A stretch of 64,000 bases of DNA from Gaiellales bacterium. GTDB lineage: Bacteria; Actinomycetota; Thermoleophilia; BMS3ABIN01. Position 1 is the stretch's first letter. Each line of letters opens with the position of its first letter. The notes beneath the pieces were generated by a model. That model was not told the origin of the DNA, searched no databases, and worked only from the letters and a program-made list of their open reading frames with translations. The translations under genes were made by a program, and so were the position numbers. The stretch is taken from NCBI GenBank assembly GCA_003599855.1, contig QZKG01000022.1, forward strand, positions 29,927 to 93,926, given 5' to 3'. Of this stretch, positions 23,573 to 36,440 are shown piece after piece.

Positions 23573-23617
23573 TGTCATCCTGAGCCGGCGCGCGGCGCCT
23601 CAACTGTCATCCTGAGC
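23573..23617 (+). repeat. Module-1 repeat: two direct copies of CUGUCAUCCUGAGC
   Basis: Same 12-mer again at 25689..25700, with a degenerate copy at 25717..25730 immediately after tRNA-Gln. Confidence 0.5.
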
Positions 23618-23652
23618 CCGAGCGCAGCGAGTGCGAAGGATCTATGTCTTAA

Positions 23653-23700
23653 CGGTTTTCTCCCGCATAAAGATTATACCTGCCAGGGCAGGGCATCATT
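23653..23700 (+). repeat. Module-2 repeat (CGGUUUUCUCCCGCAUAAAGAUUAUACCUGCCAGGGCAGGGCAUCAUU); second copy at 26811..26856
   Basis: ~80% identity over ~46 nt between the two copies. Confidence 0.5.
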
Positions 23701-23714
23701 CTACTAAAGCGTCT

Positions 23715-23768
23715 GGGGGTATTGCGTAGCGAAGGCTCGCAGTGTTGCCTGAGCCAGCAATGCTCCCG
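23715..23768 (+). repeat. Intergenic structured repeat, module 3 (GGGGGUAUUGCGUAGCGAAGGCUCGCAGUGUUGCCUGAGCCAGCAAUGCUCCC), copy 1
   Basis: Near-identical reverse-complement copy at 36382..36440; partial variant at 33996..34026. Predicted 10-bp closing stem plus two internal hairpins. Confidence 0.6.
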
Positions 23769-25499
23769 GCGCGCAGTATTTCTGCTATCCTTGGCTCTGT
23801 GAACGACCAGACCACATCCCCGTCCGGGCGCAGCGACTTCATCCGTGAGATCGTCGCCGCCGACCTGCGCGAAGGCCGCCACGAGGCCGTCGTCACCCGC
23901 TTCCCGCCGGAGCCCAACGGCTACCTCCACATCGGCCACGCCAAGTCCATCTGCCTCAATTTCGGCATCGCCCGGGAGTTCGACGGCCGCTGCCACCTGC
24001 GCTTCGACGACACCAACCCGGTGAAAGAGGAGCAGGAGTACATCGACGCCATCGAGGCCGACGTCCGCTGGCTGGGGTTCGACTGGGGCGAACACCTGTA
24101 CTTCGCCTCCGACTACTTCGAGCAGCTCTACGATTGGGCCTGCCACCTGGTTAAGAACGGCAAGGCCTACGTGGACGACCTCAGCGCCGACGAGATCCGC
24201 GAGCACCGGGGCACGCTCACCGAGCCGGGCCGTGAGAGCCCCTGGCGGGACCGCCCGGCGGAGGAGAGCCTCGACCTGCTGGAGCGCATGCGCGCCGGCG
24301 AGTTCCCCGATGGTTCGCGCGTGCTCAGGGCGCGCATCGACATGAGCTCGGGGAACATCAACCTGCGCGACCCCGTGCTCTACCGCATCCTCCACTCGGC
24401 GCACCCGCGTACCGGCGATGCCTGGTGCATCTACCCGACTTACGATTTCGCCCACGGGCAATCCGACGCCATCGAGGGCATCACCCATTCTATCTGCACC
24501 CTGGAGTTCCAGGACCACCGGCCGCTCTACGACTGGCTGATCGAGAACCTGCCGGTGCCCTCGCGGCCGCGCCAGTACGAGTTCGCGCGGCTCAACCTCA
24601 CCCATACCGTCCTCTCCAAGCGCACGCTTATGCGCCTGGTGAACGACGGCCACGTGCGCGGCTGGGACGACCCCAGGATGCCGACGCTCACGGGCCTCAG
24701 GCGGCGCGGGTTCCCCGCCGAGGGGATCCGCGACTTCGCCAACGCGGTGGGCGTCGCCAAAAACGAGGGCGTGGTGGAAGTCGGGGTGCTGGAGCATGCC
24801 GTGCGGGACGTGCTCAACCGCCAGGCGCTCAGGCGCTTCGCTGTCCTCAATCCCCTGAAGGTGGTCATCGAGAACTACCCCGAAGGCCAGGTCGAGGAGA
24901 TGGAAGCGGTCAACAACCCGGAGGACCCCTCCGCCGGCACCCGCCCCGTGCCCTTCACGCGGGAGCTCTGGATCGAGCGGGACGACTTCATGGAGGAGCC
25001 GCCGCGCAAGTTCTTCCGCCTGGCCCCCGGCCGCGAGGTGCGGCTCAGGTATGCTTACTTCATCACTTGCCGGGAGGTCGTGAAGGACGGCGAGGGCGAA
25101 ATCGTCGAGCTTAAGTGCACCTACGACCCGGAGACCCGCGGCGGGGACGCCCCCGATGGGCGCCGCGTCAAGGCCACCCTCCACTGGCTCTCGACGGCCC
25201 ACGCGCTAAACGCGGAGGTCCGGCTCTACGACCACCTCTTCCGTGAGCCTTATCCCGGCTCGGACGGCCGCGATGCGTTCGAGGACCTGAACCCCGAATC
25301 CGAGACCGTGCTGCATGACTGCTTCATCGAGCCCGCTCTGGCCGAGCTGCCCACCGGCGAGGCCGTGCAGTTCGAACGGCTGGGCTACTTCTGCCCCGAT
25401 CCGGATTCAGCGCCGGACGCGCCCGTGTTCAACCGGACGCTCACGCTGAGGGACACCTGGGCGAAGCTGCAGGCGCAGGGAAAGCAGGACAAGGCCTGA
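23760..25499 (+). CDS. glnS: Glutaminyl-tRNA synthetase
   Basis: HIGH motif [23 protein letters not shown]-type motif, [12 protein letters not shown]-terminus like E. coli GlnRS. Starts 23742/23760 lie inside an intergenic repeat. GTG 23799 is a plausible true start. Confidence 0.9.
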
Positions 25500-25573
25500 A
25501 AGCATCTTCATGCAACTGGCTTGAGTCAGGCCCCATCGCACGCTAGACTCTGATTGTGCGCTCCACGCACCGC

Positions 25574-25648
25574 TGGCGAGTGGCCTAATGGTAAGGCACC
25601 TGACTCTGGATCAGGGGATTGAAGGTTCGAGTCCTTCCTCGCCAGCCA
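25574..25648 (+). tRNA. tRNA-Gln (anticodon CUG), CCA encoded
   Basis: UGGCGAG acceptor; D-arm GCC-UAAUGGUAA-GGC; anticodon stem CCUGA/UCAGG with loop CUCUGGA; T-arm GAAGG-UUCGAGU-CCUUC; CUCGCCA-G-CCA. Matches the bacterial tRNA-Gln pattern (GGUAAGGCACC). Confidence 0.95.
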
Positions 25649-34561: not shown

Positions 34562-34656
34562 GGGATGCTCCGAACGGCGGGCCGGGAACCGGCTGTTAAA
34601 GGATACAGGCTCCAGTTACCGCGAAAGCGGCAGGCTTAAACGCGCGGTCTTAGGGT

Positions 34657-35154
34657 TCAGTCCTCGTCTTCCGCTGGCGACTGGGGGATCATCGCGCCCT
34701 CTTCCTCCCCGGTCTTGCCCTGCAGCCGCTCGCGGCCGCGCCGGACCGCCGCCAGGAACTTGCCCAGGTTGGTCTCCAGGGTCTCCAGCACCTCGTCGGC
34801 GTAGTCCTCGGCGCCCAGCCGGATCTCACGCTCGCGGGCGCGGGCGTCTTCCATGATCTGGGCGGCGTTGCGCTCAGCCATCTTGACGACTTCCTGCTCG
34901 GAGACGATGCGCTCGGCCTGCTCGCGGGCGTCCTTGATGATGCGGTCGCTCTCCGTCTTGGCCTCGGCCAGCATCTCCTGGCGCTCCTTGACGATCCAGC
35001 GGGCCTGCTTGATCTCCTCGGGGATGGTGGTGCGCATCTGGTCGAGGATGTCGTAGATCTCCTCGCGCTCGATCATGACCTTGTCGGTCATCGGCATCGG
35101 CCGGGCGTTGTTCACAATCTCGTCAAGCTTGTCTATTAAAACCAGTACGTCCAC
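34657..35154 (-). CDS. Conserved hypothetical coiled-coil protein (ATP-synthase-b-like coiled coil, no TM)
   Basis: GTG start with GGAGGAG SD. 165 aa, E/R/A-rich heptads. Sits between coaD and yceD. Confidence 0.55.
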   Translation of the reverse strand: MDVLVLIDKLDEIVNNARPMPMTDKVMIEREEIYDILDQMRTTIPEEIKQARWIVKERQEMLAEAKTESDRIIKDAREQAERIVSEQEVVKMAERNAAQIMEDARAREREIRLGAEDYADEVLETLETNLGKFLAAVRRGRERLQGKTGEEEGAMIPQSPAEDED

Positions 35155-35199
35155 TTTCTCCTCCAGAGGACCGGGGTTGACACTGTCTTGCCGGACGAC

Positions 35200-35694
35200 T
35201 TAGCTGAACAGCTCGGCGAGCCTCGCAGCCACCGCCGGCGGCACCAGGTCGTCCACCTTGCCTCCGTACTTCGCTATCTCCTTGACGCCGCTGGAACTAA
35301 GGAAACTGTACTCGGGCGACGCCATCAAGTACACAGTTTCTAGGTCGGGAGCCAGTTTCCTGTTCAGCTGGGCCATCTGGAATTCGTACTCGAAGTCGGA
35401 GATGGCGCGGAGGCCCTTCACCAGGGCACGCGCCCCCCATTTGCGGGCGAAGTCCACCAGCAGGATATCAAATATCTCCACCCTGATGTTATCGCTGCCG
35501 CCGAGGGAGTCTTCAAGGAAAGTCAGCCGCTCCTCGGCTGTGAGCAGTGTGTCCTTGCGGGGAGAATGGGCCACGACACCCACGACTACCTGCTGGAACA
35601 GCCCCGCCGCCCGGCGGATGATGTCAAGGTGGCCTTCGGTCACGGGGTCGTAGGTGCCCGGGCAGACCGCTACTATTCTGGACAAGTCAGTCAT
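35200..35694 (-). CDS. coaD: Phosphopantetheine adenylyltransferase
   Basis: CPGTYDPVTEGHLDII (T/HxGH) motif. Overlaps the rsmD stop. Confidence 0.9.
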   Translation of the reverse strand: MTDLSRIVAVCPGTYDPVTEGHLDIIRRAAGLFQQVVVGVVAHSPRKDTLLTAEERLTFLEDSLGGSDNIRVEIFDILLVDFARKWGARALVKGLRAISDFEYEFQMAQLNRKLAPDLETVYLMASPEYSFLSSSGVKEIAKYGGKVDDLVPPAVAARLAELFS

Positions 35695-36260
35695 AACTCC
35701 TGCGGGGTTGCGGGTACGCCTTCTCCGTCGAGCCGGAATATCCTGATGCTGGTGTCCCCGTAAGTCTTCCCGGCAACGGGTTCGAAGGGCAGGGAAACAG
35801 TCTCACGCGCATCGCTCTCCACCACCAGTACGGCCCCCGGCGCCATGACACCGGGGAGCAGTCTTTCCAGTTCTGGCAGCACAACGCGGAGCATTTTATA
35901 GGGCGGGTCGATAAAAATCAAATCAAACCTGTCCCCCTTTTTCGCTGCATTTCCCAGGATCGCACGGTAGTCGCGGCGCTTCAGGAGGGCATTGTCGAAC
36001 CGGAGCTGGGCGATGTTGGCGGCGATCGCCTTGACCGCAGCCGGGCGGTTATCCACCAGGAGCGCGCTGTCGGCGCCCCGGCTCAGGGACTCCAGCCCCA
36101 GGGCGCCGCTGCCGGCGAAGAGGTCCAGCACCCTGAGCCCGCTGACGTCCCCCAGCATGTTGAAGACCGCGCCGCGGACCTTGTCGGCGGTGGGCCGCGT
36201 CTCTTCCCCGCGGGGCGCGGTTATTATCGTCCCTTTCCTGGTTCCGGCGATGATGCGCAT
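35691..36260 (-). CDS. rsmD: 16S rRNA (guanine966-N2)-methyltransferase RsmD
   Basis: RIIAGTRKG...VLDLFAGSGALGLE...DPPY motifs. Confidence 0.85.
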   Translation of the reverse strand: MRIIAGTRKGTIITAPRGEETRPTADKVRGAVFNMLGDVSGLRVLDLFAGSGALGLESLSRGADSALLVDNRPAAVKAIAANIAQLRFDNALLKRRDYRAILGNAAKKGDRFDLIFIDPPYKMLRVVLPELERLLPGVMAPGAVLVVESDARETVSLPFEPVAGKTYGDTSIRIFRLDGEGVPATPQEL

Positions 36261-36381
36261 GGGTCCCGTCCGCGATTTCCGGCTTTAGGTCGTGGCTCGA
36301 TTCTACCTTTTGTCCTTGGCGGGAGCGAGCGCCTTCCCGCCGCCCATGGCTTCTAACCGCAGTTCAATCTGGTTTTCACGG

Positions 36382-36440
36382 CCGGGGGCATTGCTGGCTC
36401 AGGCAACACTTGCGAGCCTTCGCTACGCAATACCCCCGGC
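36382..36440 (-). repeat. Module-3 repeat copy 2 (upstream of rsmD)
   Basis: Reverse complement of the 23715..23768 copy with 2-3 differences. Confidence 0.6.

Follow-up and report, generated by a model that had tools for sequence, protein, structure and literature searches.

A stretch of 64,000 nucleotides (nt) from a contig of a Gaiellales bacterium (GenBank QZKG01000022.1, positions 29,927 to 93,926; the window in what follows) contains three kinds of short repeat, designated M1, M2 and M3, in the vicinity of glnS (the gene of glutaminyl-tRNA synthetase, GlnRS), of the neighbouring tRNA-Gln gene and of a fic gene. In an original prediction these had been taken for one modular family of structured intergenic repeats, representing either elements of the repetitive extragenic palindromic (REP) type or, as it was put, possibly a small cis-regulatory RNA. 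The analysis described here favours, with a probability of about 0.6, a local cluster of non-coding repeats of three different kinds, accompanied by recombination scars and located beside a low-GC island. Of the two options in the original prediction the REP-like one was the better, and in a general sense it is supported. All copy numbers given for the window refer to 64 kb of one contig of a high-GC actinobacterial metagenome-assembled genome (MAG).

M1, M2 and the junction with fic

The sequence CTGTCATCCTGAGC was found exactly at 23572-23585 and 23604-23617, and with one mismatch at 25688-25701. The true unit of M1 is a 32-nt tandem repeat (23565-23596 / 23597-23628, 84% identical; Table 1). 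Local alignment of the glnS-side copy with the copy following tRNA-Gln gave a score of 31, compared with 16.2 +/- 2.2 for shuffled sequences (approximately 7 standard deviations), and the recurrence of all three modules was confirmed, far beyond chance, at the predicted places or at most about 10 nt away from them. One of the four units (23606-23642) is complete, the other three consist of the 5' arm only. The motif was not found elsewhere in the window, nor in approximately 56 kb of DNA from relatives. The arms of the M1 hairpin (ATCCT/AGGAT) are present, and its predicted energy was no better than that of shuffled sequences (z +0.6). For neither M1 nor M2 was more structure predicted than for shuffled sequence (z +0.4 to +1.3), thus the term 'structured' used in the original prediction is appropriate for M3 but not for M1 and M2.

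M1 belongs to a REP-like family of hairpin repeats, GTCATCCTGAGC-variable-GAAGGATC, which is very widespread. The family was defined operationally by the pattern GTCATCCTGAGC-N4-26-GAAGGATC, i.e. by the two arms standing 4-26 nt apart, and the viral contigs of IMG/VR were scanned. At least 120 stretches holding at least 173 full units matched the pattern, whereas a single stretch matched when, as a control, the 3' arm was reversed. Among the matches listed, the commonest forms were 25-mers (GTCATCCTGAGCG-N-AGCGAAGGATC) and the host loci had GC contents between 37 and 70%; 38% of the listed units had an inverted partner arm within 120 nt, resembling a REPIN doublet, and 7.5% had an extra truncated 5' arm just upstream, which is the architecture seen in the window. 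The forms of 34-36 nt include the nearest variant, GTCATCCTGAGCGAGCGCAGCGAGTCGAAGGATC, which differs from the window unit by three inserted bases. By a crude open reading frame (ORF) call about 71% of the listed units were intergenic, and their orientation relative to the flanking genes was unbiased, which argues for an element acting at the DNA level and not for an RNA signal. Some viral or prophage contigs carried 5-6 copies. Rfam 15 has no model for this repeat, and none was matched even by the multi-copy viral loci. String searches of the literature with the motif or with its peptide translations yielded nothing relevant; a description under another name is possible.

M2 is a stretch of about 57 nt with a GC content of 46%, of which two copies were seen. 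The segments 23649-23684 and 26797-26832 are 81% identical over 36 nt (score 37 versus 17.0 +/- 2.1 for shuffles, about 10 standard deviations), and the similarity extends to about 57 nt at 72% identity. The element of about 46 nt described in the original prediction is therefore real, but its second interval, 26811..26856, was shifted by approximately 10 nt; in register, the second copy is 26797-26855. On their minus strands both copies contain GGCAGGTATAATC, which includes a perfect -10 hexamer, TATAAT. With no or one mismatch, GGCAGGTATAATC was not found in the window outside the two M2 copies; a similar sequence, GTATATAATC, is present upstream of pfkA. Since the same minus-strand -10 box occurs in both copies, M2 is best read as a duplicated promoter-bearing segment, and it is probably a portable promoter serving, at both places, the gene to its left. 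No relatives of M2 were detected beyond the window: in the viral contigs there were three matches, roughly the number estimated for chance, all without extension, a protein-space search with the ORF spanning M1 and M2 returned no candidates, and plasmid BLAST with M1, M2 and M3 gave no match.

The predicted layout was correct: in front of glnS the three modules are contiguous, and after tRNA-Gln M1 and M2 are split by fic. The latter gene, which codes for a protein with RhuM-type N-terminal and Fic-type C-terminal parts, contains an in-frame TAA codon and is therefore a pseudogene. The alignment with its homologues (2,479 at E <= 1e-3) reaches as far as ...LILNLIEDD(N), beyond which they have 0-3 residues; the ORF in the window runs seven codons (KGCSDSG) into M1. 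The end of the homologues after ...LNLIEDD puts the junction at TGTCATCCT. Read as reverse complement, the codons for E-D-D-N (GAGGATGACAA) give TTGTCATCCT, a 5' arm of M1. In the glnS-side composite the 5' arm is followed by the canonical 3' arm, GAGC...GAAGGATC, and then by M2, whereas in the fic-side composite foreign DNA of about 1.08 kb takes the place of these 36 nt. Because the glnS-side copy retains the canonical 3' arm, it represents the intact form and the fic-side copy the disrupted one. Thus fic came to adjoin the M1-M2 composite through a replacement at AGGATGACA, a microhomology of 9 nt. Of the earlier proposal that fic had either inserted into, or recombined at, a composite repeat, recombination stands, and a clean insertion does not agree with the exchange of 36 nt for about 1.08 kb. 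The viral contigs contained a single RhuM locus, and the flanks of this fic homologue had neither M1 nor M2.

A different view of the M1-M2 direct repeats would be that they are junctions, left either by integration of a mobile or circular M3-glnS-tRNA-Gln segment or by decay of a tandem duplication, and that the modules are the scars of a single rearrangement. The two copies are indeed in direct orientation and bracket exactly M3-glnS-tRNA-Gln, and all modules lie within 13 kb. In addition, glnS-tRNA-Gln occupies three different neighbourhoods among close relatives: in the three related loci compared it follows either dnaK-grpE-dnaJ-hspR or 5S rRNA, and in the window it is divergent from a polyA-polymerase-like gene. 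These differences suggest that the gene pair was repeatedly relocated in the lineage. However, M1 belongs independently to a widespread repeat family, the copies are only 72-84% identical and so do not stem from a recent duplication, the other M3 copies are 10-12.6 kb away, outside the bracketed segment, and no recombinase is encoded in the window. On balance this origin is possible but doubtful.

M3, a palindrome between transcription units

M3 is present in two full copies and one 5' half. As predicted, it recurs also as a reverse complement and as a partial copy: the full copies are identical in 60 of 64 aligned columns, including a 1-nt indel (about 95%), and the half copy (33990-34024) has the 19-nt core with one mismatch, for which 0.05 matches are expected by chance. 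The ends of M3 are inverted repeats of 11-15 bp, GGGGGTATTGC / GCAATGC(C/T)CCC, which in the rsmD copy extend to GGCCGGGGG.../...CCCCCGGCC. The predicted hairpin was confirmed, with a closing stem of 13-14 bp, beyond the 10 bp described originally. On the strand that is sense for glnS and rsmD the calculated RNA energies were -31.5 and -41.0 kcal/mol (z -3.3 and -6.0), whereas for the antisense strand of the glnS copy z was only -1.1; folded as DNA, the two copies had z values of -1.1 and -5.1. The reported G-C versus G-U difference in the stem is real, and there is a second one at the stem base. In both cases C/U is opposite G, and pairing on the gene-sense strand is kept by G-U. When the two full copies were used to build a covariance model, nothing further was detected in the window or in the 56 kb from relatives, and no module had a hit in Rfam 15 at gathering or E-value thresholds.

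It had been suspected that glnS starts downstream of the annotated sites, at GTG 23799, and this proved right: the NCBI model and most homologues have a length of 566 amino acids (aa), and the relatives share the block TTTCTGCTATCCTT..GTGAA at this start. The glnS model of JGI starts inside M3. The sequence TGCTATCCT, an extended -10 form, is located 7 nt before the GTG, and M3 ends 15 nt upstream of it. Leaderless genes are known in Actinobacteria and, with such a motif at this distance, glnS is most likely leaderless. Going by GlnRS (83-89% identity), the closest other genomes carry the labels Actinobacteria, Thermoleophilia or Coriobacteriia. Upstream of glnS the block TTTCTG(C/A)TAT(C/T)CTT-N-GTGAA is common to the window and three relatives, none of which has M1, M2 or M3.

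At the other two sites, too, M3 occupies DNA that the relatives do not have. The recG-rsmD spacer is 245 nt long in the window, but 15 nt in L166, 117 nt in L175/L176 and 124 nt in L167, and in L169 the two genes overlap. Similarly, the yceD-rpmF spacer measures 131 nt compared with 63 nt in L167. The rsmD-proximal block GACAA(A/C)AGGTAGAATCG is conserved in relatives, M3 being in the extra, distal DNA; likewise the rpmF promoter block TTTAC(A/T)TT...CGCTATCCTAC is conserved, and half M3 is in an insertion directly after the yceD stop codon. None of the relatives' glnS-upstream, recG-rsmD and yceD-rpmF spacers contained M3, and the promoters were retained. From this arrangement it appears that at all three sites M3 lies between the end of a unit and an intact, pre-existing promoter, outside the 5' untranslated regions (UTRs). 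The promoter-like motifs common to relatives are TGCTATCCT for glnS (23780-23801), TTTACATT-N-CGCTATCCTAC for rpmF (33925-33960, minus strand) and GACAAAAGGTAGAATCG for rsmD (36295-36315, minus strand), the latter with TAGAAT about 85 nt after the M3 copy.

To look for M3 elsewhere, its 19-nt core, TTGCGTAGCNAAGGCTCGC, was used to scan 185,579 species-representative genomes, 241 million metagenome records and the viral contigs. There were 14 matches in the genomes, 27 in the metagenome records and none in the viral contigs. Not one extended past the core and, since every match ended at the core edges, all were regarded as chance matches. Taken together, the data on the spacers and the scans indicate that M3 is, as far as can be judged from sequence comparison, a young, lineage-specific palindromic insertion. 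A 24-nt match to the half copy (GGGTGTTGCGTAGCTAAGGCTCGC) in five soil contigs was judged coincidental because there it is coding sequence, at the C-terminus of an IS481-like transposase (RPHASLSYATPW). The possibility that the inverted full copies, 12.6 kb apart, served as substrate for an inversion was also considered and rejected: the recG-rsmD adjacency is ancestral.

Co-option of M3 as an insulator or as a factor-independent (I-shaped) terminator, which would prevent read-through of recG transcription into rsmD and read-through between the divergent polyA-polymerase-like gene and glnS, is unlikely. Such a role would suit the GC-rich stem of 13-15 bp, the location of one copy 62 nt after the recG stop codon and the placement of both full copies between transcription units. 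However, neither strand has a U-tract, and canonical terminators do exist in this genome, e.g. after pfkA (GGCGCCCC-GGGA-GGGGCGCC-TTATTTAT). A terminator scan found nothing at M3, and the relatives manage with a 15-nt spacer or with overlapping recG and rsmD.

The distributions of M1, M2 and M3 differ, which speaks against the 'modular family' of the original prediction. A link between M1 and M3 was nevertheless looked at in some detail. M3 contains GCGTAGCGAAGG, the commonest 3'-arm type of the M1 family, and 12 nt further on CCTGAGCC, the 5'-arm core. The order of the arms is permuted relative to the M1 family, and the same CCUGAGC/GCGAAGG duplex, with tandem G.A, could form. With a position weight matrix of the M1 family M3 ranked approximately 12th in the window (99.99th percentile of positions). 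The link consists of a shared 12-mer and a shared 8-mer, but 9 of 200 dinucleotide shuffles of M3 matched equally well, and the relationship is unproven. It seems quite improbable that the M1 type is an uncatalogued hairpin element of many bacteria and M3 its lineage-specific derivative, on which the same machinery acts. Conservation of the M1 type over hosts of 37-70% GC would then imply recognition by a conserved protein or a structure-specific enzyme. In that case the modular family would exist after all, with the surroundings of glnS and tRNA-Gln as a hotspot of the machinery.

The second option of the original prediction, a small cis-regulatory RNA, fared worse. According to this explanation M3 would be a functional structured RNA, either a small RNA or a 5' leader, by which glnS, rsmD-coaD-yceD and rpmF are regulated together. 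The strong sense-strand fold, better than the antisense one, the sense orientation of both full copies upstream of glnS and rsmD and the two G-C to G-U substitutions in the stem are compatible with this idea, and all three adjoining operons are concerned with translation. On the other hand, none of the relatives examined has M3 in its orthologous spacers, where the same promoters are conserved, and M3 lies upstream of the putative -10 boxes; in the case of glnS it ends 15 nt before the extended -10, which the start codon follows after 7 nt. Moreover, the third copy lies on the opposite strand, antisense to its operon, and amounts to half an element, the full copies are about 95% identical over 64 nt including flanks, which is typical of recent copying and not of paralogous regulators, and there was neither an Rfam match nor an occurrence in the public collections scanned. 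A regulatory RNA is thus very unlikely.

The low-GC island and the genes around the repeats

The repeats and the genes surrounding them are listed in Table 1.

Table 1. Repeat copies and genes in the part of the window discussed here
Feature	Position	Strand	Remarks
DHH-CBS-PolyA_pol gene (polyA-polymerase-like)	20825-23506	-	ATG at 23506, divergent from glnS
M1 unit 1, glnS site	23565..23596	+	5' arm only: GTCATCCTGAGC + GC-rich spacer
M1 unit 2, glnS site	23597..23642	+	GTCATCCTGAGC-N17-GAAGGATC at 23606-23642
M2 copy a	23649..23705		GGCAGGTATAATC on minus strand, 23684-23672, toward DHH-CBS-PolyA_pol through the M1 units
M3 copy a	23709..23771	+	63-nt palindrome; end 15 nt before extended -10 TGCTATCCT (23783-23791)
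glnS (GlnRS, 566 aa)	23799-25499	+	GTG start 23799
tRNA-Gln (CTG)	25574-25648	+
M1 copy b, post-tRNA	25681..25729	+	unit 1 5' arm 25688-25705; second 5' arm TTGTCATCCT 25716-25725; fic junction
RhuM-N/Fic-C gene	25691-26770	-	pseudogene, one in-frame TAA at 26093-26095
M2 copy b	26797..26855		GGCAGGTATAATC on minus strand, 26832-26820, toward fic, ~50-100 nt upstream of fic start
IS3-type transposase remnant, triplicated end-like repeats	~26880-27630	-	inside low-GC island
942-aa Vps62/fn3 protein gene	28090-30918	-	large secreted-type protein
pfkA	31486-32538	-
rpmF	start ~33893	-
M3 5' half	33990..34024	+	in 60-nt insertion between yceD stop (34025) and rpmF promoter; antisense to operon
yceD	34025-34561	-	stop at 34025
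coaD	35200-35694	-
rsmD	35691-36260	-
M3 copy b	36380..36443	-	62 nt after recG stop, ~85 nt upstream of rsmD -10 (GACAAAAGGTAGAATCG)
recG	36506-38686	-

The region 25650-31410 has a GC content of 43-60%, compared with 64-71% in the flanking native genes, and the GC content at third codon positions (GC3) of its genes is 0.45-0.72, with 0.55-0.72 for the fic region, compared with 0.8-0.95 in native genes. On account of these low values it is a horizontally acquired island. It abuts tRNA-Gln, the low-GC block beginning 2 nt 3' of the tRNA gene, and contains the Fic pseudogene, a remnant of an insertion sequence (IS), a 106-aa membrane ORF (GC3 0.45) and the 942-aa Vps62/fn3 protein. In its composition and site the island resembles tRNA-linked genomic islands, which it also recalls by combining a Fic-type gene, an IS remnant and a large secreted-type protein. 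It differs from them in that no integrase was found among the window ORFs scanned (30 ORFs, Pfam) and no second copy of the tRNA-Gln 3' end, i.e. no att-like direct repeat, was detected at up to three mismatches, the far island boundary included. Nor is it supported that the repeats mark island boundaries: the M1/M2 copy is on the tRNA side only, and the far end has none.

Since the source is a MAG contig and synteny upstream of glnS is unlike that of relatives, a chimeric or mis-joined assembly at the short repeats was also considered, but it is extremely improbable, because GC and GC3 are uniform on either side of the modules, the order recG-rsmD-coaD-yceD-rpmF-pfkA is as in relatives, and the repeats are diverged (72-95% identity) and not identical as in collapse artefacts.

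Some further features of the window were recorded. The IS3-type remnant comprises an HTH_Tnp_1-like ORF (27366-27623) and a truncated one (27074-27451), and is preceded by triplicated end-like repeats (CATACCTATTTATCCAATCGTTTCAATGAAT; GTGTCCCCTTATTTCC) and by a 27-nt inverted repeat (26981-27046), which attracts spurious microRNA (miRNA) matches. A very long gene made up of 102-nt tandem units (34 aa, TPR-like) occupies 1-6100 on the minus strand; with more than 20 recognisable copies of 60-78% identity it dominates the output of repeat finders. The spacer 32929-33231 (minus strand, 303 nt) separates a 117-aa membrane ORF from a small zinc-ribbon-like ORF; it folded better than 100 of 100 shuffles (z -3.4) and had no Rfam match. 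A flavin mononucleotide (FMN) riboswitch (113.7 bits) was detected at 43901-44020 (minus strand), at the 5' end of a minus-strand riboflavin operon whose genes, by Pfam, include a lumazine-binding riboflavin synthase (41971-42624) and a lumazine synthase (40119-40595).

Origin of the repeats and relation to known elements

The course of events could have been as follows. M1 is a copy of the widespread REP-like hairpin, with the recurrent architecture of an extra truncated 5' arm followed by a full unit. Together with M2 it forms a composite of about 140 nt, of which there are two direct copies flanking M3-glnS-tRNA-Gln, the glnS-side copy having remained intact. In the fic-side copy the M1 3' arm would have been exchanged, through illegitimate recombination mediated by the microhomology at AGGATGACA, for a foreign RhuM/Fic gene, which later became a pseudogene. 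M3, a 63-nt palindrome similar to REPs or to miniature inverted-repeat transposable elements (MITEs), may have been inserted or copied into three spacers. In each of them it came to lie with an existing promoter on one side and a stop codon or divergent gene on the other, and it would have been tolerated because the promoters stayed intact. M3 would owe its spread to some form of mobility, and it seems to lack an RNA function. The M1-M2 direct repeats bracketing glnS-tRNA-Gln could record a rearrangement that moved the gene pair.

Several observations weigh against this interpretation. REP and MITE families are defined by genome-wide copy number, and the class assigned here is based on a 64-kb window, which holds four M1 units and 2.5 M3 copies. 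All module copies are within 13 kb, an arrangement that local duplication explains no worse than transposition does, and for this reason transposition-type spread is inseparable from local duplication. Neither full M3 copy is flanked by a target-site duplication. No IS with M3-like ends was found in the window, the only IS remnant having unrelated ends (CATACCTATTTATCC / GGGGACACC), and none of the 30 window ORFs matched RAYT (Y1_Tnp) in the Pfam search. The substitutions in the M3 stem and its better fold on the sense strand weakly favour a strand-specific constraint, an outcome that would arise by chance in about 25% of cases. Finally, both the predicted promoter activity of M2 and the leaderless start of glnS are read from sequence motifs.

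REP and REPIN sequences, which RAYT (Y1) transposases mobilise, are short imperfect palindromes outside genes (Bertels & Rainey 2011, PMC3116915; PMC3337134; PMC3479197). They are present in tens to hundreds of extragenic copies per genome, the cognate RAYT gene is typically flanked by REPs, and the families are usually lineage-specific and vertically inherited. Repeats of the M1 type resemble them in occurring as singlets, tandem units and inverted doublets that are mostly intergenic and unbiased in orientation. They differ in that their sequence is conserved across loci of 37-70% GC; furthermore, the M1 units of the window are tandem, not inverted, and the window has no RAYT gene. M3 shares with REPs and REPINs the ability to form a hairpin, and its 63 nt are comparable to the size of REPINs.

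In other respects M3 is closer to MITEs, of which Correia/NEMIS, RUP and ERIC are examples. It has terminal inverted repeats of 11-15 bp around a non-palindromic core, is intergenic and near promoters, and shows presence/absence polymorphism, being missing from the orthologous sites of relatives. Unlike MITEs, it has no target-site duplication and no IS with matching ends, and it is shorter than most of them. Genes of aminoacyl-tRNA synthetases can have cis-regulatory leaders such as the T-box, and M3 is likewise a structured element immediately 5' of such a gene. It differs from these leaders in having no Rfam match, in not being conserved with glnS and in its location upstream of the -10 box of an apparently leaderless gene.

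As to its type, the finding is not unusual. Its practical use is in the corrected glnS start, in the fic junction and in the pointer to a widespread repeat for which no catalogue entry was found. For annotation it is a reminder that gene callers extend ORFs into repeats: glnS should be set to start at GTG 23799, and fic should be described as a pseudogene fused to repeat DNA. The one point of wider interest is the widespread GTCATCCTGAGC...GAAGGATC repeat, which is not specific to this window and may merit systematic description. For the organism itself, a member of an actinobacterial lineage about which little is known, the locus illustrates how short repeats and microhomology shape rearrangements near an island linked to a tRNA gene.

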